64,000 nt of DNA from an uncultured Christensenellaceae bacterium. GTDB taxonomy: Bacteria; Bacillota; Clostridia; Christensenellales; UBA3700. Positions 1,586-38,200 of this stretch are shown here, in pieces (position 1 is the first letter of the stretch; each line of letters opens with the position of its first letter). The stretch spans positions 42,844-106,843 of the forward strand of contig CALWHF010000004.1 of the NCBI GenBank assembly GCA_944380305.1, read 5' to 3'. The notes under the pieces were generated by a model, which worked only from the letters and a program-made list of their open reading frames with translations, had not been told where the DNA came from and made no database searches. Both the position numbers and the translations under genes were made by a program.

Positions 1586-2419
1586 ATGGACGACAACGAC
1601 AGAAGAAGATTCAACAGAGACGAAAACGACTATTACACAAATAACAGTCGCAGGATCCCGACGCCGCCGCGCAGTTACGGCGCGCCGTCTCAGGGTATGC
1701 GCAGAGATTACGGCGTTCCTCGCGACGGCGGGCAAAGCTCGTTTCCGCAGAGGCCGTCTTCTTCGGTCCCGCAAGGAAGTCAGCCTGCGCAGAGACCGTA
1801 CGACAGACCCGTTTCTCAGCAGGGTGTTCATGGCGGATACGGACAGTACGGCAACGCTCCGCGCGCACCGTATTCTCAGCCGTCTCCGTACGGTTCTTAC
1901 GGTCAGCCGCAGGCTCCTTCTTATCCGCAGGGCGGCTATCAGCAGCAAGGCGGATACCCTCCCGTAAACGGGGCTTCGCAGGGCTATCAGGGCATGCCGC
2001 AGCAGGGCGGTTTCGTTCCTCCGCAACCGCAGTACGTCCAGAATTACGACGAAAGGGATATTTCGTACGAAAACGTACAGGCTCAGCCCGCGGAGAAGAA
2101 AAAACGCGGTCTGTTCGGTTTCGGCAAGCAGAAAAAAGAGGAATTCGATCCTGCGAATATGGGCAACGTGATAATCACCGAGCCGAGGACGTACGACGAC
2201 GTGCGCGTCATTATCGACGGTCTGAGAAAGAGGCAGGCGATAATAATCGACCTTTCAAAGGTGTCGGATAAGGATTCGCAAAGGATACTCGATTTCTTGA
2301 GCGGTGCGATATACGCTCTTGGCGGCGCGCAGCAGAGGATCAACGATCATATGTTCCTGTTCACGCCCGAAGGCGTAATGATACAGGGACCCGCGTCTTT
2401 GCGCAATAAATACAGATAA
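1586..2419 (+). CDS. sepF: Cell division protein SepF with a long low-complexity N-terminal extension
   Basis: The C-terminal ~90 aa (VIITEPRTYDDVRVIIDGLRKRQAIIIDLSKV...FLSGAIYALGG...FLFTP) match the SepF core. The N-terminal ~170 aa are P/Q/G/Y-rich. Confidence 0.8.
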   Translation: MDDNDRRRFNRDENDYYTNNSRRIPTPPRSYGAPSQGMRRDYGVPRDGGQSSFPQRPSSSVPQGSQPAQRPYDRPVSQQGVHGGYGQYGNAPRAPYSQPSPYGSYGQPQAPSYPQGGYQQQGGYPPVNGASQGYQGMPQQGGFVPPQPQYVQNYDERDISYENVQAQPAEKKKRGLFGFGKQKKEEFDPANMGNVIITEPRTYDDVRVIIDGLRKRQAIIIDLSKVSDKDSQRILDFLSGAIYALGGAQQRINDHMFLFTPEGVMIQGPASLRNKYR

Positions 2420-2436: not shown

Positions 2437-3237
2437 ATGACGGACAGAATCAGGAAATATAAAGTCTATATATGCGAAGTGCTGCTTTTTGCGGCCCTTC
2501 TCGCGGTAGATCTCATATCCAAGAGCGCGGCTTTCGATTTTCTCGGAAGTCAAGGCGGGAGCTACGTCGTTTTCGACGGTATTTACGAGCTCGTCGAAGT
2601 GCACAACGACGGCGCGTCTTTCGGCATTTTCAGTGGTCAGACTGCCGTTCTCAGCATATTCACGGCAATCGCTATGGCTGTTCTCGGAGCGGTTTTATTG
2701 TGGAGACCGAAGTCGCCCAGGCTTTTCAGGCTGGGGGTTATTGCGATAATTGCGGGCGGCGTAGGCAATCTCGTGGACAGGCTCGCATTCGGTTACGTCC
2801 GCGATTTTATCGATTATAAATTCCTCGAAACTTTCTTCGGGATAAAGAATTTCGGGGTCGGAAACGTCGCTGACATATTCGTGCTCGTAGGGTTGCTTTG
2901 CATAGTCGTATACGTCTTTTTCGGATACAAAGAGGGCGATTTTGCCAAAGAACCGCACCATTCGGATACGCTTCCCGACGCGCTCGTGGTAAACGAAGGA
3001 GAAGAGAAAAAAGACAAGAAAAAAGAAGAGAAGGAAGGCGTCGTCTCGTTTGTCGACGAAAGCGTGAACGGGGGTTCTGCAGCCGTCGAAGAGAAGCCAT
3101 CTGTTGAAAACAACGAGGCAGACATTGTTTCGGAAAACGTTCAGACGAAAAAAGGTCAGAAACCCGCAAAATCGCGTCGTAATTCTGCCTCAAACGACCG
3201 CGGGAGATCCGCTGCGGCGAAGGACGGGGTCAGATGA
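2437..3237 (+). CDS. lspA: Lipoprotein signal peptidase II with a ~100-aa charged C-terminal extension
   Basis: GNLVDRLAFGYVRDFIDY and NVADIF motifs plus 4 hydrophobic helices. Followed by rluD, as in Bacillus. Confidence 0.85.
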   Translation: MTDRIRKYKVYICEVLLFAALLAVDLISKSAAFDFLGSQGGSYVVFDGIYELVEVHNDGASFGIFSGQTAVLSIFTAIAMAVLGAVLLWRPKSPRLFRLGVIAIIAGGVGNLVDRLAFGYVRDFIDYKFLETFFGIKNFGVGNVADIFVLVGLLCIVVYVFFGYKEGDFAKEPHHSDTLPDALVVNEGEEKKDKKKEEKEGVVSFVDESVNGGSAAVEEKPSVENNEADIVSENVQTKKGQKPAKSRRNSASNDRGRSAAAKDGVR

Positions 3238-14829: not shown

Positions 14830-15516
14830 ATGTTGAAAGAAAGGGAATTCAGACAAGAGACGATCGAAAGACCTGTGGACAACAGGTTCGGCGCGGGCTA
14901 TGCTCAGAACGGCGGCTACGGCTACTATGACGAGCAGCAGGGCTACGACGCTTACGAAAGATCGTATGAGGACAGAGGTTACGGCAACGCGTATCAGCAG
15001 AACGCGTATTACGACACGGCGGTAAGAGAATACCCCCGCGAGGACTTCGCTCGTCCCGAGGCGTTCCCCCGTTACGACGACTACACCGCGACGCAGAACG
15101 CTCCCTATCAGGAATGGCAGAGAAGCGGTTTCGACAGAACCGACGCATACGATTTCAATGCGGGATTCGCGGCTCCGCAGGCAACGACCTTCGAGCACGT
15201 CGAATACGAAACGAAGAAACGCGCAAAGCGCACTCTCAACGCAAAATCAAAAATGCTTATTGCCGTTTACTTCGTACTTGTAGCGGTAATCGCATCGTTG
15301 ATAATCGCCAACGTAGTGGCGTTCGGCGGCGGCAGCGTAGAGGCGCAGGCACCTACCGAGGCGACTTACAACGAAGAGGCTCTCAACATGGCGGTCACCG
15401 CTGACGGAAGCATAGTAGAGATGTCTGAAGTCAGATACCTCGAAGGATACGAATACGAGACGAGCACCAACTGGTTCGACAGTTTCTGCGACTGGGTTGC
15501 GAACGTCTCAAAATAA
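14830..15516 (+). CDS. Bitopic membrane protein in the ftsL position of the dcw cluster
   Basis: 228 aa from ATG 14830, with a GGGGTG Shine-Dalgarno 8 nt upstream. ~140-aa Y/G/Q/N/D/E-rich cytoplasmic region, one TM helix (MLIAVYFVLVAVIASLIIANVVAF) and a ~65-aa external tail. No clear FtsL coiled coil. Confidence 0.65.
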   Translation: MLKEREFRQETIERPVDNRFGAGYAQNGGYGYYDEQQGYDAYERSYEDRGYGNAYQQNAYYDTAVREYPREDFARPEAFPRYDDYTATQNAPYQEWQRSGFDRTDAYDFNAGFAAPQATTFEHVEYETKKRAKRTLNAKSKMLIAVYFVLVAVIASLIIANVVAFGGGSVEAQAPTEATYNEEALNMAVTADGSIVEMSEVRYLEGYEYETSTNWFDSFCDWVANVSK

Positions 15517-24656: not shown

Positions 24657-25802
24657 ATGAACGAGGTGTTTTTGCTTGACGTCGGCTCGGGCAAGCTGGC
24701 TTTTGCGGTAGGCAACAAGTCCGATGCGGGCGTTTACAACGTCAGACATATCGCTTCCTGCGAATACGACGGTTACTATAAGGGAGAGTTTCTCGCTCCC
24801 GACGCACTCGAGGAGAGCGTACGTCAGACGATAGCCGAGAGCGGCTACCGCGGCAGGATCAACAAACTTTACGTCGGCGTTCCTACGGACTTCATCAAGG
24901 TAAGGAACAATCAGGTCAAAAACACATACCGTTCCGCGCGCACCGTCACGGACGACACCCTCGACGAGCTTTACGCGAGAGGCAATATCTTCGACGGTGA
25001 TGCGGATTACGTCGCGATAAACTGCAGTGCGAGAGGGTTCACGCTCGACAACAAATTCAGATGCGTAAATCCGATCTACGAGCAGGCAACGTATATCGAC
25101 GCCGATCTCACATACATCATGTGCGACAAGAAGTTCTGCGAGACGATCGAAAGAGTGGCGGCGGCGATAGGAGTCAGGAGAGTCAGCTATATATCTTCGT
25201 TCTGGGCTACCTGCGTGCAGATGTTGCCATCGGACGTAAGAGAGCAGGGCGCGGCGGTCTGCGACATAGGGTTTTCCAACACATCTTTCGGCATTGTGGT
25301 CGGAGACGGGTTGGAATGCGCGGCGAGCAAATCGATCGGCGGCGCGAATATAGCGGGAGATCTGTATCAGGTGCTGGATATTCCTTTCGCAAGCGCGAGC
25401 ACGCTCGTTTCGAAAGCGAATCTGTATCTCGAGACCGACAACGGCAGCTGTTACAACGTGCTTGTTGACGGCAAACCCGAACAGTTCAACAGTTTCGGCG
25501 TCAACAGGATAATACAGGCAAGACTCGACGATTTTGTGGAATTCATTTCGGAGCAACTCGCTCAGAACGGCAATTTTTCCACAGAAGTCGTGTATCTGAC
25601 GGGAGGAGGCATCGCATCGCTCAAGGGCGCGGCGGCTTATATATCGAGACAACTCGGCATGAGGCTGGAGACTATCGTCCCCGACGTTCCCACATACGGG
25701 AAGAGCTACTATTCTTCGGTATTCGGGACGTTCGACGTGGCGGACAAACTGGAAAAAAGCAAAAACGTACTGAAAAGGTTTTTTGAGAGATTTCGGAGGT
25801 AA
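24657..25802 (+). CDS. ftsA: Actin-like cell division protein FtsA
   Basis: LLDVGSGKLAFAV phosphate-1-like N-terminus, YLTGGG motif and a C-terminal amphipathic tail (NVLKRFFERFRR). Immediately upstream of ftsZ. Confidence 0.8.
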   Translation: MNEVFLLDVGSGKLAFAVGNKSDAGVYNVRHIASCEYDGYYKGEFLAPDALEESVRQTIAESGYRGRINKLYVGVPTDFIKVRNNQVKNTYRSARTVTDDTLDELYARGNIFDGDADYVAINCSARGFTLDNKFRCVNPIYEQATYIDADLTYIMCDKKFCETIERVAAAIGVRRVSYISSFWATCVQMLPSDVREQGAAVCDIGFSNTSFGIVVGDGLECAASKSIGGANIAGDLYQVLDIPFASASTLVSKANLYLETDNGSCYNVLVDGKPEQFNSFGVNRIIQARLDDFVEFISEQLAQNGNFSTEVVYLTGGGIASLKGAAAYISRQLGMRLETIVPDVPTYGKSYYSSVFGTFDVADKLEKSKNVLKRFFERFRR

Positions 25803-25807
25803 TAAAA

Positions 25808-27334
25808 ATGGCAGACGGAAGCGGAAGAGCTAAAATCAAAGTTATCGGCGTAGGCGGAGGCGGAAACAACGCCGTGAACCGTATGATAGCGGCGGGCATC
25901 AAGAGTGCGGAATTCGTCGCGGTCAACACTGACTATCAGGCGTTGACTCTTTCAAACGCGCCCACCAAAGTGCAGATAGGCGCGAAACTCACGGGCGGTC
26001 TCGGCGCGGGTGCCGATCCCAACGTGGGCGAAAAGGCGGCGGAAGAATCCAGAGAAGAACTCCGCGCGCTGCTCAAGGACGTAGACCTGCTTTTCATCAC
26101 CGCAGGTATGGGCGGCGGTACCGGTACAGGTGCGGCTCCCGTGATCGCCGCGCTTTCCAAAGAACTCGGAATATTGACCGTTGCGGTCGTGACCAAACCG
26201 TTCGCGTTCGAAGGAAAGAGACGTATGCACAACGCGATCCAGGGTATCGAGAATCTGCGCGGCAACGTGGATACTTTGCTCGTGATCCCCAACGAAAAAC
26301 TGCTCGAAGTACTCCCCAAGGGCACCGCGATGCTCGAGTCCTTCATCAAGGCGGACGAAGTGCTCAAGCAGGCTATTCAGAGTATAAGCGAACTTATCGT
26401 GACCCCCACGGTCATCAATCTCGACTTTGCCGACATCAGCGCGATCATGAGAAAGAAAGGTCTCGCTCACATGGGTATCGGCGTGGGTGAAGGTCCCGAC
26501 AAGGCTATCGAGGCTGTCAGAAACGCGGTCGAAAGCCCGCTTCTCGAAACGAATATCGAAGGCGCGAGCGGCGTGATCCTTCACGTCATGGGCGGCAAGG
26601 ATATGGCACTCGACGAAGTCGCCGACGCAAGCAGACTCGTAGAGGACATCGTCGATCCCGCGGCAAACATCATCTTCGGCACGGGCTTTGACGAGAACCT
26701 CGAGAACAAAGTACAGGTCACGCTTATCGCCACGGGCTTCAGCGCGCCCGCAGAGGACGCGAACGGCGGTTATTCGCAGAGAAGAGGACAGGGCTCGGCT
26801 CAGTCCCGCACTTCGGCGGCAATGGATAACGCTATAAAGCGTCTCAACGACAGTCGCAAGAAGGAAAGCGCGTACGACGACATCGGCGACGACAGGAACA
26901 GAGGTTACGCTCCCTATCGCGGCGAGTCGAGAAACGAAGGTCAGAACGCAGATCAGCGTCGTTTCGACAACTACGGCGAAAGCGGCAGGAACAACGGCAA
27001 TTTCGGAGGAAATTACGGCTATTCCGACAACCGCGGACAGGCTCCCGCAGGCAATAATTACGGTCAGAATCAGAATTTTGCTCCCAGCGGCGGCAATTTC
27101 GCGGGCGGCAACGGCGGCTATACAGATTTCCGCGGAGCGGGCAATGGCAATTACGGCACGCAGGGCGGCTATCAGAACCAGGGCGGCTTCGGCAATTATG
27201 CGACTCCTCAGCGTCCGCAGGACAATGCGGGACAGTATCAGCCGAGAGGTCAGCAGGGCGGTTACAACGCGCCTCAGGACGAGGACGATGAAAAGCTCCC
27301 CGCGTTCCTCAGAGTCTTCCGCAAGAAGAAGTAA
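25808..27334 (+). CDS. ftsZ: Tubulin-like cell division protein FtsZ with a ~180-aa low-complexity C-terminal linker
   Basis: GVGGGGNNAV and GMGGGTGTGAAPV signatures. The linker is G/N/Q/Y/R-rich and the protein ends in a conserved-type C-terminal peptide, DDEKLPAFLRVFRKKK. Confidence 0.95.
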   Translation: MADGSGRAKIKVIGVGGGGNNAVNRMIAAGIKSAEFVAVNTDYQALTLSNAPTKVQIGAKLTGGLGAGADPNVGEKAAEESREELRALLKDVDLLFITAGMGGGTGTGAAPVIAALSKELGILTVAVVTKPFAFEGKRRMHNAIQGIENLRGNVDTLLVIPNEKLLEVLPKGTAMLESFIKADEVLKQAIQSISELIVTPTVINLDFADISAIMRKKGLAHMGIGVGEGPDKAIEAVRNAVESPLLETNIEGASGVILHVMGGKDMALDEVADASRLVEDIVDPAANIIFGTGFDENLENKVQVTLIATGFSAPAEDANGGYSQRRGQGSAQSRTSAAMDNAIKRLNDSRKKESAYDDIGDDRNRGYAPYRGESRNEGQNADQRRFDNYGESGRNNGNFGGNYGYSDNRGQAPAGNNYGQNQNFAPSGGNFAGGNGGYTDFRGAGNGNYGTQGGYQNQGGFGNYATPQRPQDNAGQYQPRGQQGGYNAPQDEDDEKLPAFLRVFRKKK

Positions 27335-27353: not shown

Positions 27354-27383
27354 AGATCTCCTCGGTCGAGGGGATCTTTTTTT
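27354..27383 (+). terminator. Rho-independent terminator after ftsZ
   Basis: AGATCTCCTC pairs with GAGGGGATCT (one mismatch), followed by T7. Confidence 0.65.
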
Positions 27384-30966: not shown

Positions 30967-31031
30967 GATAAGACATCACGTTGCGGTCCGCTTGCTTTTG
31001 CAGGCGGATCTTCTTTTTTCGACAAAAAAGT

Positions 31032-31058
31032 ATAAACGTCGCTCGGCGGGCATAGATT
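31032..31058 (+). promoter_or_regulatory. Possible sigma-E-type promoter upstream of sigK
   Basis: ATA (31032-31034), 16-nt spacer, CATAGATT (31051-31058). The remembered consensus is ATA-N16-18-CATACAnT. It lies very close to the Shine-Dalgarno, so the call is tentative. Confidence 0.25.
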
Positions 31059-31075
31059 TATTCGGAGGTGGATCT

Positions 31076-31777
31076 ATGTTACTCAGCGGCATTTTCGCAT
31101 TGCTTTCGAACCTGCTGTTTTTCAGCGGATACGTCAAGAACAAAAACTGTTTTCCGAGGCCGCTTTCGCCCGAAAAGGAAAAAGAACTGCTCGACAGGAT
31201 CGCGCAAGGAGACAAACAGGCTAAGGACGACCTTATCCGTCACAATATGAGACTCGTGGTACATATAGTCAAGAAATATACGAGTTACGGCGACAACGAC
31301 GAGCTTATCAGCGTCGGATCGATAGGTCTCATCAAAGCGGTCAATTCTTTTCACGAAGGTAAAGGAACGCAGTTTGCCACATACGCGAGCAGGTGTATAG
31401 AAAACGAGATACTGATGGTGATCCGCGCCAACAAGAAATATAAAAACACGAAGTCACTTTACGAGCCCGTGAGTTTCGACAAGGACGGCAACGAGGTCGC
31501 GCTTATCGATCTTATCGGGCAGGAAGAGGAAAGCGTGATAAGCAAAGTTGAGAGCAGGATCGTCCAGGAAAAACTGCTTGACGCCGCAAAAAAGGTGCTC
31601 GACGACAGAGAGTACGAGATAATAATGCTGAGATACGGGATAAACGAGGACAAGGCGTATACTCAGAACGAGGTCGCTGAAAAATACGACATATCGCGTT
31701 CGTACGTTTCGAGGATAGAGAAAAAAGCGTTGTTCAAGATGAGAAAATATATCGAAGATCACGGCATGAGGTTCTGA
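31076..31777 (+). CDS. sigK: Sporulation sigma factor K (pro-sigma-K), uninterrupted
   Basis: Hydrophobic pro-sequence ending in GYVKNKNCFPRPLS (B. subtilis SYVKNNAFPQPLS). [27 protein letters not shown] and ISRSYVSRIEKKAL are present. No intervening element. Confidence 0.9.
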   Translation: MLLSGIFALLSNLLFFSGYVKNKNCFPRPLSPEKEKELLDRIAQGDKQAKDDLIRHNMRLVVHIVKKYTSYGDNDELISVGSIGLIKAVNSFHEGKGTQFATYASRCIENEILMVIRANKKYKNTKSLYEPVSFDKDGNEVALIDLIGQEEESVISKVESRIVQEKLLDAAKKVLDDREYEIIMLRYGINEDKAYTQNEVAEKYDISRSYVSRIEKKALFKMRKYIEDHGMRF

Positions 31778-31814: not shown

Positions 31815-32137
31815 TTGAGACAGTCGGATAAACGCAGCCCGCAAGGGGTGAGGAAAGTCCGGGCATCGCAAGGCAGGGTGCCGGCTAACTACCGGTGAAG
31901 GCGACTTCAAGGAAAGTGCAACAGAAATAAACCGCCCGCAAGGGTAAGGATGGAAAGGCGAGGTAAGAGCTCACCGCTCGCTCGGCGACGAGGGAGGCAC
32001 TGTAAACCCCACCCGATGCAAGAGAAAACGACGGTATGCGGTCGCCTGCCGCGTCGGAAAATCGCTTGAGGCGCGCGGCAACGCGCGTCCTAGACAGATG
32101 TTTATCCTCGACAGAACTCGGCTTACAGACTGTCTCG
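31815..32137 (+). ncRNA. rnpB: RNase P RNA (bacterial)
   Basis: Universal P4 strands GAGGAAAGUCCGGGC (near 31849) and ACAGAACUCGGCUUACAG (near 32111). P1 pairing of GAGACAGUC (31817-31825) with GACUGUCUC (32128-32136). Internal GGUGCCGGCUAAC, GUGCAACAGAAA and GUAAACCCCACC elements. Ends are approximate. Confidence 0.85.
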
Positions 32138-32162
32138 CCCCTCAAAGGGGTCTTTTTTTTTG
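32138..32162 (+). terminator. Terminator after rnpB
   Basis: Short CCCC pairs with GGGG around a TCAAA loop, followed by T9-10. Confidence 0.5.
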
Positions 32163-32251: not shown

Positions 32252-35200
32252 ATGTTTATTTACATTATCACCGCGCTCTGCGTACTTGCCGTGGTATGTC
32301 TCGGCGCGATAGTAGCGCAGTACGCGCGCAAGTTCGATTATGCCGGATACGTCGTCGGCGGAGACAAGACGACGAATATCAAGCAGCTCGCGATCGCTCT
32401 CAAAGACGTCGAAAAGGTCGGCTCGGTGCCCAACGTCGCCGCAATTCTCGGCAAGATACGCAAAGCGTATGCCGTCGTCAGACAAAAGGCGGAGAGAAAA
32501 GAGACTTTGCTCGAGTGCGAAAAATGGCTGCTCGAAAATTACCGCTCGGTCACCGCAGGGATAAAGAGGTCGGATTACACCGCGTTTGCCGCATTGCCGC
32601 ACAAGGGAGAGGCGAGGATACTGCACGTCGCGACGACGATCGCGGCGCAGAATTATTGCAGACTGGACGCAGATACCGTCGCGGGCGCGGTACACGAATT
32701 CTGCCGATACACACCGCTTTCGTATGACGAATTGAACGCTCTCGGAAAAGCGTTCGAAATCGCGCTTCTGCGGAAAATAGCTTTCGTCGCCGACAAGATC
32801 AGACTTCTCGGCAGAATGAAACGCCGTGCCGAAGAGGATAGGGAACCTGATGCGAAACTGGGCAAAAAAGAGGGATACCTCTATTATTACAGGGCGAGCG
32901 GCAAGAAGATCCCCGAAAAATATCTCGGCAAAACCGCGTCCGTCAACGCCGAAAACATAGAATTCGCTTTTGCAGGCGCAGCCTCGGATTATGCGAGACT
33001 GATAGCAAACGCGGTAACGTCGCTTAAAGGTCTGAGAGACTTTTTCACCCCTGCATTCAAAATATCGCTGTCAACTATAAACTCGTATTACGAAAGGGAT
33101 AAGTCGTACAGAGACAGCGATCCCGCGTCCAAAGAGCAGTACCTCGCGGCAACGGCAAAGCTCGCTGCCTACTTTTCGTCGGGAGAATATGCGGTCGCGA
33201 AAGGCGCGTTCGATCTTGCTGCGCGTTTCGACAAGCATTTCGGAGAGATAATTTTCGATCACAGATACGCGCTTGCGTCACATGTCAGAGGCAAGTACGT
33301 TGCCGCTCTCAAAAGGACTTCGTATAAGGCGGACAAGTGGGCATATTATGTCTCGGTTTTTCTGTTGCAGACCGTGTTTTCATTCGTATCGTGCGTGTTT
33401 TTGCCGATATTGTGGCTCAGGATCGCAGTGTTCTTCCTGACTTTTGTCGCGTGCTATCCGCCGTGCGCGTATATCGCCGAAAGATCGCTTTCGTTTGTGC
33501 TGCCAAAAAGACCTGTACCCAGAATGAATTACGATAAACTGCCTTTAGAAGGCGCGACGGCTGTCGTCGTGCCGATCTTCGTCACGTCTGAAAAGCAGGC
33601 AAGGAACGCCGTCGAAAACGTGCTCGCTATGCAGGCGGTGAACAGCGACGAAAACCTGACGTATTATCTTCTATGCGACCTGAAAGAGAGCGATTGCGAA
33701 AAAGACGTTTCCGATGACGGGATACTTTCGGCTATGGCGGAATTTTCGGGAAGAAAAAACTTCGTCGTGCTTGTCAGAAAGAGAGTTAAAACAGGCGAAA
33801 GGTACGGCGCGTACGAAAGAAAACGCGGAGCCGTGCGGGATTTCAACGAATACATGCTTACGGGCGACGATTCGAAATTCAGTTTCGTCTCTCGGAAAAG
33901 CGACGCGAAACCTAAGTTTGCTATGGTTCTCGACGATGACAGCCGATTGTCGGCAGGCGAAGTACTGACCGCCGTAAATACCGCGCTGCATCCGCTCAAC
34001 GCAAAATACGACGTGCTCGCTTTTTCGTCCGTTTATTCGCTAAAATCGCTGAAAACGCCTTATTCGAAAAAATACGTCGATTACTCCGGAATGCAATCGT
34101 ATTGCCATTATGACGACTTTTTTTACGACCTTTGCGCGCGATCGGTTTTTTGCGGGAAGGGAATATACCGCATTGAGGAATTTCATAAAAAGACTTCCGC
34201 GGCGGTTCCGGACGGCAAGGTGCTGAGTCACGACGTGCTCGAAGGCGCGCTTGCCGATACAGGTTCTCTCGACCTTGCAGTATCGGAAGACGCTCCCGAT
34301 TCGTTCGTCAGCGACGTTACCAGATCGAGAAGGTGGACGAGGGGAGACCTGCTTCTTTTGCCGTTTGCAGGCAAAAAGTACCGTTCGGACGGGATTTACG
34401 CATATATCGTGCTGAAAAACGTCTTTGCAATATTCGCGCCCGTATGTGCTCTCGTTTTATGGATTTTTACGTTAATTTTCGGCTATCCGTTGATGGGACT
34501 TGCCGTGTTTTTCGCAAGTTTTTCCATGCCCGCCGCGTCGCTCGCGGTTTCGGCGGTCAGCGCGAGAAACGTGAAGGCGTCGCGTAGTTTTTCAAAGATA
34601 TTTTCCACGGTGTCAAGAGCGGTCGCGGACGTATTGCTTTTGCCGTTTTACGCTGTCGACAACCTGCTCACCGCGGCTGGAACTTTTGTCGATTACGTTT
34701 TCAATTCGCGCGCGCTTCTGAGATGGAGACCGTTTTCGTCCACGCTAGGGCAGAAAGATTTTTACAGACACGCAGCGGCGGTCGCGCCGTCTTGCATATT
34801 CGCGGCTTTCGTTGCCGCGGCGTTTTATTTCAGCATACCGCTCGCGACGTATTTTCTCGCGTATATAGTCGCGGTCAATCTGCTGTATTTTGCGGGTAAA
34901 CAGTACAAAAAACGCCTTTTGCGCGAAGAAGAACGCAGAATTCTCACCGAATACGCGAAAGCTACTTACGGGTATTTCGCCGCATTCGATTATGAGTCGC
35001 TTCCTTGCGACAACGTACAGTACTATCCGCCAAACGGTTCCAGCGCAACGACCTCGCCTACCAATATCGGGTATTCTTTGCTCGCCGAGATATGCGCCTC
35101 AAAGCTGGGTTTCGAGACGCCGCTGAGAGCCCGTGCGAGGGTAGTTTCATTGCTGGACAAGGTTGATTCTCTGGACAAATGGAAAGGACATCTTTACAAC

Positions 35201-38200
35201 TGGTATGACGTAAACACGTCAAAACCCGTCGCGCCGCTTTTCGTGTCTTCGGCAGACAGCGGGAATTTAGTCGCCGCGCTTACAGTAACGCGAAGTTTTC
35301 TTGCCGAAAACGGCGACAAGTTCAATGCGTACAGGTGTAAAAAACTTATAGACGAAACGGATTTTTCCGCGCTGACAGACAGAGACAAAAACCAATTGTA
35401 TATCGGTTACGACGTCGGGAGCGGAAAATATTGCGGGCATTACGACATGATGGCGAGCGAGGCGAGACTTACCGTATACGGCGTATGTTGCAGATCGGGA
35501 GACCAATCGCTTTGGCGCGGACTTTCGCGTCGAATCGTAAATTCGCACGGCAACGTACTCGCGTCATGGTCGGGCACGGCGTTCGAGTATCTGATGCCGC
35601 AGCTCTTTTTGCCCGATTTCGAAGGGTCTCTTATAACTTCGAGCGTCAGAAGAGCGGTAAAAACGTATATTTCGAGAAAATGCAATTCGCTTTGGGGTGT
35701 CAGCGAAAGCGGATATTACGCTTTCGACGCAAACGCGAATTATCAGTACAAAGCGCACGGTCTCAGCGAACTTGCGCTGAGAAACGAGGACGACAGATGC
35801 GTTATCGCGCCATACGCAAGCGCGATGGCTGTGAAATATGCGCCGAAGAAGGTAGCGGACAACCTCGGCAAGCTTTCGCAATGCGGGGGCGCGTGCGAAT
35901 TCGGGTTTTACGAGGCGATTGATTTTTCATCGGGCAAAAACACTGTCGCTTCGTGCATGACTCACCATCAGGGAATGATACTTTGCGCGCTGACTAACGC
36001 ACTCGTCGACGACGCTATCGTCGGATATTTTATGCGGGACGATGCGATGCGAGGCGGGGAGCTTCTGCTTGCCGAGCCCGAAGATTATACGAAGGCGGCA
36101 AGGGAAAGAAAGCGGGATTTCGTTTACGACGACAGGAAGAAATCGTACGGCGAGGAGATCCCGTTGGGAGAATTTCCAGAGGTCTGTCTGCTGCACGGCA
36201 AGGAGTACAGCGTCGTCATAGACGATTACGGGTGCGGATACTCGCGCTGGCGGGACAGAGACGTCAACGTGTTTTCGCACGATTTTTACAAAAACAGCGG
36301 AGGATTCGGATATTTCGTCAGCGACGGCGAGATATTTTCGCCCACTTTCGCGCCGCTGAAAAAAGACGGCGGATCGTATAAAGCGCGCTTTTCGGACGAT
36401 AGTGCCGAATTTCAGAACGTAGGATCGAATTGCAGACTCAAAGTATACGCGCCTGCAGTAATAAGCGGCGAAGTGCGGGAATATACGGTTGAAAACAAGA
36501 GCGATTCGATGAAAAAATATGTTTTCGTCTTTGCCGAAAGGGCGGCTTTGAGCCGCAGGGACGAATACGCGGCTCACCCCGCTTTCTGCGACCTTTTCGT
36601 AAAAGCGGAATTCGATGCCGAAAAAAACACGGTATATCTAAAAAGAAAACCGAGAGAAAGCACGGGCGGGTTTACGCTTGCGGCGACGATGCTGTGTTCG
36701 AACGAAGTTTTCGCCGAATGCAACAGACTCAATCTGTATGGCAGGAACAGAGACGAGAGCAATCCCGCACTCGATTTCGGAGGCGACGCACCTTCTACGG
36801 GAGACGTTCTGTTTCCGGCTGTCGGATTGAAGTGCGAGTTCACACTCGCGCCGGGGCAGAGCGAGACGGTCGCCGTCGTGATACAGTGTTCGGATGACGA
36901 GGACGCTTTGAGATACAGAGTGGAACGGGTGCTCGGCACCGACTTTCTCGATTACGCCTGCAAGTCGGCATCTGGCGCGGAAAGCGTGATGTCAAAATAC
37001 CTGCCCGATCTTAAAACTGCACGCTATGCAGGGAAACTTGCCGCCAAACTGCTTTACGAACCGTATCCCTTATCCGCGCTAAAAGCGAGAGAGGCGGGGG
37101 CGTCGCAACTCGTTTTCAAAGAGAAAACTCTCGTTCTGAGATATGACGGCAATGCGGCTTTCACGAAAAAAGCGGTGCTGTCCGCGCTTGCTTGCCGACT
37201 TGCGGGAATAGACCTCAGACTGTTTATCGAATACGACGGAAACAAAACCGACGCGCTCGACGAGATCGCGGAAAGGTGCGGGGTAAAGGATATTGCGAGC
37301 CTGCCGTTCGTCACGGTATTCGACGTGAACGCGTATAAGCCGAGAGACGTAAAGAATTTCGAATCCACGGCTTTTTTCGTGATGAAAGAGCTCGAAGGAA
37401 ATATGTCAAAAGGCACGACTATCTCTGTCAGGAGAAGAAACGACGCGGCGTCGTTCGTGCAATGCGAATTGCCCGAAATATATCCTAGCGGAAACGGCGG
37501 CTTTGCAGACGGAGATTATGTCGTCACATCAGTGCCGTCCGCGCCTTATTCCAACGTGGCGTCGGGGAGAAACGGCGGTTTCGTCGCGACCGAGAACGGC
37601 GGCGGATATGCCTATTTTCTCAATAGCAGGGAGAATAAGCTGTCGGGTTGGAGCAACGATCCCGTCGCGGATCCGCCGTTCGACAGAGTGCTGGTTTCAG
37701 ACGGCGACGGAGTGATCAGGATAAACAGGCTCAACGAAGGAGGTTACGTCAGACACGGCGAAGGTCGCTCAGTATACAAGTGCAGAACGTGGCGCGCGGA
37801 TTACGATCTGAAGAAAAGCGTGCTTGCCGACGGTAGGATCATCGCTACGACGGTCAGGATAGAAAATCACGATGACAATGAGCTGTCGCTATCGGTGATA
37901 TATCTTGTCGATCCTTGTGCGGACGTCTGCGAAAACAGAGCCGATGTCTATTGCGAAAAGCACGGAAAGGACTCCGTCAGGATCGTCAACGTCAGGACGG
38001 GCAGGTCGTATTATCTGTATGCCGAAAACGCGTACGAGCTTATCACGGACAAGATACAGGCGGTCTCGAGGGGGGTAAACGGATATAATCCCAAGCGCGG
38101 AGAAAGCGCGTTCAACAATCCGCTCGCAGGTGCGGAGGTCAGGATAAGGCTGAAGAAACACGAGTCGGCGACGGTCGAATTCGCGTTGTGTGACGAGAAA

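Follow-up and report, generated by a model that had tools for sequence, protein, structure and literature searches.

The DNA analyzed here, a 64-kb window (the whole stretch under study), is the dcw (division and cell-wall) region of an uncultured, spore-forming gut member of the Christensenellales, with a GC content of 51.5%. Three of the division proteins that it encodes, FtsZ, SepF and the protein in the ftsL position, carry long tails rich in tyrosine and arginine, and we find these regions to be real, translated, disordered and selectively maintained on the membrane-proximal division proteins of one Christensenellales clade. To judge from the sequences, they share a layout in which Tyr or Phe and Arg are evenly spaced and Lys and aliphatic residues are excluded, while the spacers in between (G/N/Q in FtsZ, P/Q/G/S in SepF, A/D/E in FtsL) drift between species. 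Relatives keep this design; thus, the three tails are probably functional sticker-and-spacer regions. A further step, which we take tentatively and partly by analogy with characterized proteins, is that the tails could supply cohesive or condensate-like co-assembly at the Z-ring.

The ftsZ product is a clear member of its family (PF00091, 5e-52; PF12327, 2e-30; TIGR00065, 416 bits against a cut-off of 295). Its globular core stops at LIATGF (aa 311) and is followed by a 181-aa linker (26741-27283) and, in frame, by the C-terminal peptide DDEKLPAFLRVFRKKK, exactly where an earlier reading of the letters without database searches (the sequence-only reading) had placed them. The peptide fits the pattern [DE]..[IL]P.FL[RK] seen in homologues and is predicted by AlphaFold2 to be helical at aa 499-507; in characterized systems, the FtsZ C-terminal peptide docks FtsA and SepF. 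The linker consists of 19.9% G, 13.3% N, 9.9% Q, 9.9% A, 8.8% R, 7.7% Y, 3.3% F and 1.7% K. AlphaFold2, run with a 51-sequence alignment, divides it into a low-confidence segment (aa 315-334), a predicted helix (aa 334-355, 26807-26872, SAAMDNAIKRLNDSRKK; predicted local distance difference test (pLDDT) score 58-73) and a segment with no secondary structure and pLDDT below 50 (aa 358-490), ahead of the short helix of the C-terminal peptide. I, L, V and M are absent from aa 358-490, whereas they make up 27% of the folded proteins encoded in the window (P about 10^-18.5). The sequence-only reading had described a FUS-like linker of ~180 aa: its length and its richness in G/N/Q/Y/R stand, but the first ~45 residues are ordinary, and the 133-aa low-complexity part is nearer to hnRNPA1.

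SepF is identified by its core (PF04472, 1e-23 over aa 195-266), which follows an N-terminal extension of 170 aa with 14.7% P, 14.7% Q, 12.9% G, 10% Y, 9.4% S and 8.8% R. The start of the gene is fixed because it has a good ribosome-binding site (GAGGAG, 6 nt upstream of the ATG) and because the N-terminal motif is conserved. The N-terminal region is present in 107/107 homologues with an aligned SepF core, and nearly all of them keep both the N-terminal motif (MDxxDRRR[FY]N..E.DYYTNN.R) and an internal basic/Phe motif. The 23-aa motif that opens the protein reads MDDNDRRRFNRDENDYYTNNSRR, with MDRRDYNNEEREVFNNDRG as a variant; one or the other occurs in nearly all of the 107. Canonical SepF has an amphipathic membrane-targeting helix at its N-terminus, a short linker and an FtsZ-binding core. 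The window protein instead begins with the acidic/basic motif MDDNDRRRFNRDEND and has no such helix at its extreme N-terminus. It has the same core domain as canonical SepF (PMC3034016 for its function), with its sole basic/Phe motif, KKKRGLFGFGKQKK (aa 171-185), immediately upstream of that core. This membrane-targeting-like motif is internal, however, placed after the 170-aa extension with its conserved opening motif, and its helical hydrophobic moment is low (0.34).

The third protein lies in the slot between rsmH and the gene for a penicillin-binding protein (PBP), has a predicted transmembrane (TM) helix with the basic stretch KKRAKRTLNAKSK on its N-terminal side, and thus has the position and bitopic topology of FtsL. 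Its start is fixed because the N-terminal motif (MLKERE..DNR[FY]G across homologues) is conserved and a ribosome-binding site is present. The window protein has no Pfam or NCBIfam match, the FtsL and DivIC profiles included. Its family does align over the TM helix and C-terminus with the other Christensenellales slot proteins (hhalign, 98.3% probability, E 1.8e-14), one of which (L055) passes the Pfam FtsL model PF04999 with 26.8 bits against a cut-off of 22.9. A C-terminal motif, TNWFDxxCD...FGG, is common to Christensenellales FtsL proteins (loci L041, L045, L055, L068, L075), and in the hhalign alignment the coiled-coil segment appears as a gap in the window protein. On this sequence evidence, the window clade has lost by deletion the extracellular coiled coil that separates the TM helix from the TNWFDxxCD motif, which is why the protein no longer matches FtsL/DivIC profiles, and the slot protein is a derived FtsL. 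A short motif that seemed common to the SepF and FtsL N-termini (ER.V..N.R.G[FY]) was also weighed and was dropped as too weak.

The cytoplasmic tail of this FtsL, about 120 aa of predicted disorder, is rich in Y/A/E/R/D, with 20% aromatic residues, 27% charged residues, a net charge per residue (NCPR) of -0.11 and only about 26% G/N/Q/S/P. Like the FtsZ and SepF tails, it has the stickers, Arg in place of Lys and no aliphatics; unlike them, it is acidic and not built on G/N/Q spacers. The sequence-only reading had seen one Tyr/Gly/Gln/Asn-type composition recur in both partners. This is borne out for the P/Q/G/Y/R-rich extension of SepF; for FtsL it is correct as to Tyr and fails as to G/N/Q.

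The segments at FtsZ aa 358-490 and SepF aa 24-160 are disordered, polar and of low complexity, with AlphaFold2 pLDDT and composition serving as proxies for disorder and prion-likeness. Each of the three variable stretches contains 9 Arg, no Lys and more Tyr than Phe (for FtsZ, composition and the Arg and Lys counts were taken on the overlapping segment aa 366-492). Aromatic residues make up 12-20% across the three regions, and NCPR is -0.008 for the FtsZ stretch and +0.022 for that of SepF. The aromatics are spaced more evenly than in composition-preserving shuffles, with z scores of -1.5 to -1.9 for FtsZ, -2.4 to -2.6 for SepF and -3.0 for FtsL. The spacing score is also negative in 16/16 homologous long linkers, and not one adjacent aromatic pair occurs across 17 long linkers, where about 26 would be expected in total. 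Work on prion-like low-complexity domains reports that Tyr drives cohesion more strongly than Phe and that Lys and net charge weaken it (10.1101/2021.01.01.425046). By composition and patterning, the FtsZ and SepF tails match this published grammar.

The likeness extends to the prion-like domains (PLDs) of hnRNPA1 and FUS, which share G/N/Q/S spacers, Tyr in excess of Phe, Arg over Lys, near-zero charge and 12-14% evenly dispersed aromatics. In Jensen-Shannon divergence of composition, for which the values are illustrative only, the FtsZ stretch lies closest to the hnRNPA1 low-complexity domain (0.139), followed by SSB (0.167), the FUS PLD (0.196) and the B. subtilis linker (0.40); the smallest value for the SepF stretch, equally illustrative, is that to the FUS PLD (0.140). 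The resemblance is not one of homology: when searched with phmmer against every PDB chain, the low-complexity stretches of FtsZ and SepF gave no match up to E 10, as expected given the HMMER composition filter. It also differs in setting, which here is bacterial, cytoskeletal and membrane-bound without RNA-binding domains, and the FtsL tail is much more acidic.

Within the window, the feature is specific to these proteins. A six-frame scan of 327 open reading frame (ORF) segments, with thresholds of at least 10% aromatic, at least 40% G/N/Q/S/P and at most 7% aliphatic residues, was passed by FtsZ and SepF alone, and among 54 greedy gene calls, genuine long low-aliphatic segments are confined to FtsZ, SepF and the protein of the ftsL slot. 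For an internal comparison we took the disordered C-terminal tail (~100 aa) of LspA, the signal peptidase II encoded at 2437-3237, which is K/E-rich and aromatic-poor; the LspA tails of two relatives are shorter, K/E/S-rich and almost without aromatics. Therefore, the lineage does not simply turn all disordered regions Tyr/Arg-rich.

With metagenome-type sequence as the source, one might suspect that the apparent tails stem from a frame error, mis-assembly or a wrongly called start. We found no support for such an artefact and judge it exceedingly unlikely: 181 aa of linker lead in frame into the conserved C-terminal peptide, sepF and ftsL each have a start pinned down by a conserved N-terminal motif and a ribosome-binding site, and identical or nearly identical proteins come from many independent assemblies. 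FtsZ, for instance, is 508 aa long in 13/14 members of the cluster that contains the window protein, and the full-length proteins listed for the next cluster have 516 residues. Two sources of the DNA itself were also considered. Recent slippage was rejected, since Tandem Repeats Finder shows no real tandem repeat in the FtsZ and SepF coding regions, its only hit being a trivial two-copy 12-mer. Acquisition of foreign DNA was rejected on third-position GC content, which is 63-67% in the disordered regions and 65-68% in the remainder of the genes.

To place the FtsZ linker among its relatives, we compared homologues at several distances. FtsZ proteins at 61-99% identity all have linkers of 153-223 aa with 9.7-11.2% aromatics and 0-3% Lys. 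At 181 aa here and 124-223 aa in related clades, the linker is at least three times as long as that of E. coli or B. subtilis, and this length is conserved in the clade. More distant Clostridia mostly have D/E/K-rich linkers of about 50-110 aa with mostly 1.5-10% aromatics, and sister clades with FtsZ cores 48-70% identical have short, aromatic-poor linkers. An exhaustive search of 1.84 billion cluster representatives yielded 98 diverse FtsZ proteins with a recognizable core and C-terminal peptide. Among these, the median linker length is 100 aa (interquartile range 67-149), and linker aromatics have a median of 4.3% and a 95th percentile of 10.4%. The window linker is thus extreme in composition, not in length. 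The statement in the sequence-only reading that Firmicute linkers are around 50 aa and not aromatic-rich was accordingly too narrow on length but right that the composition is unusual. Many FtsZ representatives of clusters at 50% identity (P0334, P0337, P0338, P0373 and others) have 250-690 extra residues before the core, probably because the gene call has merged ftsZ with dcw genes upstream of it.

The closest comparisons come from 80 mraY-centred loci of species-representative genomes, in which FtsZ and the FtsL-slot protein were read side by side. In the seven closest species, the FtsZ cores are 97.4-99.7% identical to that of the window and the linkers only 45-55%, yet the linkers are 189-195 aa long with 10.3-10.9% aromatics. 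The residues that persist are the putative stickers: in the aligned FtsZ linkers, retention is 0.84 for Tyr and 0.79 for Arg against 0.47 for G, 0.46 for N and 0.38 for Q, and in the SepF extension it is 0.76 for Tyr and 0.82 for Arg against about 0.45-0.5 for P/Q/G and 0.14 for S (0.91 for the SepF core). In the disordered region of FtsL, Tyr or Phe accounts for 10/21 invariant or nearly invariant columns. In Candidatus Ornithoclostridium faecigallinarum, all three tails are of an R/D/E/aromatic type. Two loci (L008, L009) have N/Q of the FtsZ linker swapped for R/D/E, with length and aromatic content unchanged and with peptide repeats of the form DYGR[TP]xxxxDY. These alignments argue that selection preserves tail length and the content, positions and spacing of the stickers, and they run counter to the outcome that would have spoken against the sequence-only reading, namely unrelated or absent linkers without shared composition in close relatives.

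An alternative is that the tails are a tolerated low-complexity expansion with a generic tether role, in which Tyr and Arg are kept for solubility, compaction or protease resistance and not for intermolecular contacts. FtsZ linkers are indeed hypervariable and tolerate scrambling (10.1101/301622), and long ones are common (at least 120 aa in 39/98 representatives). We regard this explanation as possible though rather unlikely, as it does not readily account for a constant length and aromatic fraction while half of the residues change, for the selective retention of stickers in both FtsZ and SepF, or for even spacing and complete avoidance of Lys in all three regions. The K-rich, aromatic-poor LspA tail from the same genomes and the restriction of the feature to division proteins within the window argue in the same direction.

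A second alternative is that the tails recruit a shared factor or are regulated by one. They would then be a platform for the docking of a kinase or phosphatase with Tyr, Ser or Thr as its target, of a protease, of a sporulation-specific regulator of asymmetric division, or of a polyanion (nucleic acid or polyphosphate, for instance) recognized in the RGG/YGG manner. Short conserved motifs in disordered regions typically serve as specific binding sites, and each of the variable regions has a short, strongly conserved motif beside it (the N-terminal motifs of SepF and FtsL, and the FtsZ helix at aa 334-355). The predicted FtsZ helix may be a second docking site, and the genes directly downstream, spoIIGA, sigE and sigG, give a sporulation context. 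Nevertheless, the three conserved motifs are unlike one another, and that of the FtsZ helix (SAAMDNAI[RK]RL[NT]DSRKK) is confined to one genus-level clade, in which FtsZ cores are at least 97% identical; in neighbouring clades the linker carries different short motifs, RPNYxAPDF and VDALYGRK among them. What the three tails have in common is composition and patterning and not a motif, and the window contains no candidate partner that we could identify. We therefore give the idea of a shared docked factor little credence.

How the traits are distributed bears on whether the tails evolved as a set. For 36 species loci with both proteins complete, we scored an FtsZ linker of at least 120 aa with at least 8% aromatics and an FtsL tail with at least 14% aromatics: 12 loci have both traits, none has the linker only, 8 have the FtsL tail only and 16 have neither. 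The aromatic tails of SepF and FtsL extend over a wider Christensenellales clade, and the long aromatic FtsZ linker is found only inside it; the SepF extension occurs in genomes with the long linker and also in those of the FtsL-only clade (L013, L016, L072), whose FtsZ linkers are 73-79 aa long with 2.6% aromatics, although the links between SepF proteins and genomes are indirect. This nesting suggests that the SepF and FtsL tails arose first and that FtsZ gained a matching tail later.

If the tails do act cohesively, which we take to be the simplest of the explanations, we envisage the following arrangement. FtsZ polymers and SepF oligomers are inherently multivalent, and all three tails would be held at the inner face of the membrane, that of FtsZ through its C-terminal peptide on FtsA or SepF, that of SepF beside its own basic/Phe motif, and that of FtsL beside its own TM helix. 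Weak multivalent aromatic/Arg contacts could then form between the FtsZ tails of neighbouring subunits and filaments, and the same kind of contact could reach the SepF and FtsL tails at the membrane surface. Such contacts would come on top of the specific docking of the FtsZ C-terminal peptide on SepF and FtsA, and the outcome would be a condensed, membrane-apposed network of Z-ring, anchor and late divisome. A more far-reaching version, in which the clade has rebuilt the cytoplasmic face of its divisome on three co-evolved prion-like tails, with heterotypic aromatic/Arg condensation operating besides the classical peptide-domain contacts and with the SepF and FtsL tails preceding a 130-aa FtsZ tail, seems to us unlikely to hold in full.

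Several observations weigh against cohesive co-assembly. The three traits are nested and not strictly coupled. In one sister clade (L011-L016, L062, L072), aromatic SepF and FtsL tails coexist with an FtsZ linker of 72-79 aa and 2.6% aromatics, so that FtsZ evidently works there with a short, aromatic-poor linker, as a simple tether would allow. Linker length and FtsL aromatic content are correlated across species (Spearman rho +0.69; cross-species correlations overall are 0.5-0.7), but on a neighbour-joining MraY tree the traits fall in contiguous blocks, which implies one or two origins. With so few origins, which also suit a neutral tether, the correlations are largely phylogenetic and do not count as independent evidence; they reflect long-term maintenance, not repeated co-evolution. 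Spacer composition partly tracks genomic GC (rho -0.50 for N, +0.61 for D/E), which fits drift and again agrees with a tether. Aromatics at 11% are high for a disordered region, yet little above the 8.8% of the organism's folded proteins, and the acidity of the FtsL tail should weaken homotypic cohesion. Finally, low-complexity or sticky tails are reported to lower FtsZ levels and impair assembly in B. subtilis (10.1101/301622), although the window clade itself contradicts the selection against low-complexity FtsZ tails proposed there. Overall, the multivalent sticker-and-spacer interpretation put forward in the sequence-only reading is partly supported, through evolutionary evidence that the tails are probably functional.

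The location of the tails is compatible with one more explanation, namely that they adsorb to the membrane, with aromatics and Arg inserting at the bilayer interface and thereby raising the avidity of the ring or sensing or inducing septal curvature. All three regions are held next to the membrane, and motifs built around an aromatic residue can drive disordered proteins to insert into membranes (PMC13516693). In that work, however, Leu/Arg flanks favour insertion and Asn/Glu flanks disfavour it (PMC13516693). Within 4 residues of the aromatics, the FtsZ flanks are 0% aliphatic, 29% N+Q and 30% G, and the FtsL flanks are 22% D+E. Because N/Q/G and D/E flanks are reported to disfavour insertion, this explanation is weakened, and we consider it improbable.

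Cohesive co-assembly has its closest precedent in the alphaproteobacterial long-linker FtsZ proteins (Caulobacter, >170 aa; Agrobacterium, about 240 aa; PMC13170164), which have the same layout of an FtsZ core, a conserved C-terminal peptide and, between them, a disordered linker that is 3-5 times as long as in E. coli. There, as here, the long linker is clade-wide. The Agrobacterium linker promotes condensates in vitro and foci in vivo, truncation reduces both (PMC13170164), and the linker widens the conditions under which they form. The present case differs in that it belongs to the Bacillota, that its linker is rich in aromatics and Arg and free of Lys and aliphatics, that two partners carry matching tails, and that it is known from sequences alone. 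The word "aromatic" is absent from the text of PMC13170164, and linker aromatic content is not discussed there. E. coli SSB follows the same logic as this FtsZ, with an oligomerizing core, a low-complexity linker and a partner-docking C-terminal peptide. Built from an OB core, a disordered G/Q/P-rich linker and a conserved acidic tip, SSB phase-separates (PMC7584906); it is of another family and process, however, and its linker has few aromatics. The B. subtilis-type FtsZ linker (10.1101/301622) has the same position, presumed tether role and type of C-terminal peptide, but at about 50 aa is roughly 3.5 times shorter than the window linker, and it is charged, K/E/Q/P-rich and aromatic-poor.

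Long disordered FtsZ linkers, FtsZ condensates and the prion-like grammar of eukaryotes are thus already known. In the searchable literature, we found no description of an aromatic or prion-like FtsZ linker, of SepF condensates or of Christensenellales division proteins; none of a SepF whose N-terminus is extended by a disordered region and whose membrane motif is internal; none of an FtsL that has a Tyr-rich tail and has lost its coiled coil; and no case of three such tails together. The lineage bears on two questions, whether the FtsZ linker has a role beyond that of a flexible tether and whether FtsZ condensates have physiological status. It offers a natural case of an FtsZ linker with the full aromatic/Arg grammar of eukaryotic phase-separating domains, found also on SepF and FtsL, and its relatives can serve as graded controls, some with the same core and different spacers, others with the same partners and a short linker. 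Should the tails co-assemble, sticker-and-spacer cohesion would extend to the bacterial cytokinetic ring and the module would have been assembled stepwise in evolution; should they moreover prove co-evolved, the sister clades would form a natural titration series for linker grammar in cytokinesis. If they do not co-assemble, strong selection on the composition and patterning of bacterial disordered regions is documented all the same, as is a SepF architecture with an internal membrane motif that had not been reported.

Table 1. Coordinates in the window of the genes and regions discussed.
Feature	Position	Strand	Evidence
ftsZ, 508 aa	25808..27334	+	ORF; Pfam Tubulin and FtsZ_C; TIGR00065 above cut-off; AlphaFold2 core pLDDT 75-97
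FtsZ proximal linker, aa 312-357, not low-complexity	26741..26878	+	AlphaFold2; clade-restricted motif
FtsZ low-complexity linker, aa 358-490, 133 aa, G/N/Q-rich, Tyr/Phe evenly spaced	26879..27277	+	pLDDT; composition; Tyr/Arg retention
FtsZ C-terminal peptide, DDEKLPAFLRVFRKKK	27284..27331	+	in frame 3' of linker; conserved in all long-linker homologues
sepF, 277 aa	1586..2419	+	Pfam SepF, aa 195-266 only; GAGGAG ribosome-binding site
SepF N-terminal conserved motif, 23 aa	1586-1654	+	homologue alignment
SepF aromatic disordered region	1655-2065	+	composition; Tyr/Arg retention
SepF basic/Phe membrane-targeting-like motif, KKKRGLFGFGKQKK, aa 171-185	2096-2143	+	homologue alignment
SepF core	2168-2383	+	Pfam SepF
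FtsL-derived bitopic protein, 228 aa	14830..15516	+	slot between rsmH and PBP gene; AlphaFold2; hhalign
FtsL-slot N-terminal motif, MLKEREF..DNRFG	5' of 14878	+	homologue comparison
FtsL-slot disordered Tyr-rich cytoplasmic region	14878-15228	+	AlphaFold2 pLDDT <50 and no secondary structure, aa 17-133
FtsL-slot TM helix, aa 138-166	15241-15327	+	AlphaFold2
FtsL-slot small extracellular domain, TNWFDSFCDW at end	15328-15513	+	shared C-terminal motif
ftsA, 381 aa, second membrane anchor for FtsZ C-terminal peptide	24657..25802	+	FtsA-family matches sub-threshold

The gene order of the region begins with ylmE, sepF and lspA at the 5' side and continues in the middle with mraZ, rsmH, the ftsL-slot gene, the PBP gene, murE, mraY, murD, ftsW, murA and ftsQ/divIB; at the 3' side, ftsA and ftsZ precede spoIIGA, sigE and sigG. 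A strong terminator-like hairpin (27354-27377) lies 3' of ftsZ. The nearest relatives are gut or faecal metagenome-assembled genomes labelled "uncultured Christensenellaceae", "Christensenella sp." and "Candidatus Ornithoclostridium". FtsA is short (381 aa) and falls below curated cut-offs (TIGR01174, 91 against 176 bits; PF14450, 30.1 against 31.8), with its strong C-terminal amphipathic helix, VLKRFFERFRR, kept (hydrophobic moment 0.96).

Upstream of ylmE, inspection of all forward frames at positions 1-880 gave no convincing ORF. In relatives, an SSB-family gene precedes ylmE by ~1 kb, and the equivalent place would fall beyond the window edge; checked as a further disordered-linker protein, the SSB beside ylmE-sepF in relatives proved to be of a tandem-OB type without a low-complexity linker. 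The sole match in an Rfam scan of the entire window is a class A bacterial RNase P RNA (31816-32141, 277.6 bits), flanked by a sigma-70-family gene (30992-31777) and a giant ORF of 2496 aa (32252-39742). The latter combines glucoamylase-like, GH94 supersandwich and GH94 catalytic domains and resembles cyclic beta-1,2-glucan synthases, which is surprising for the genome of a gut member of the Clostridia.

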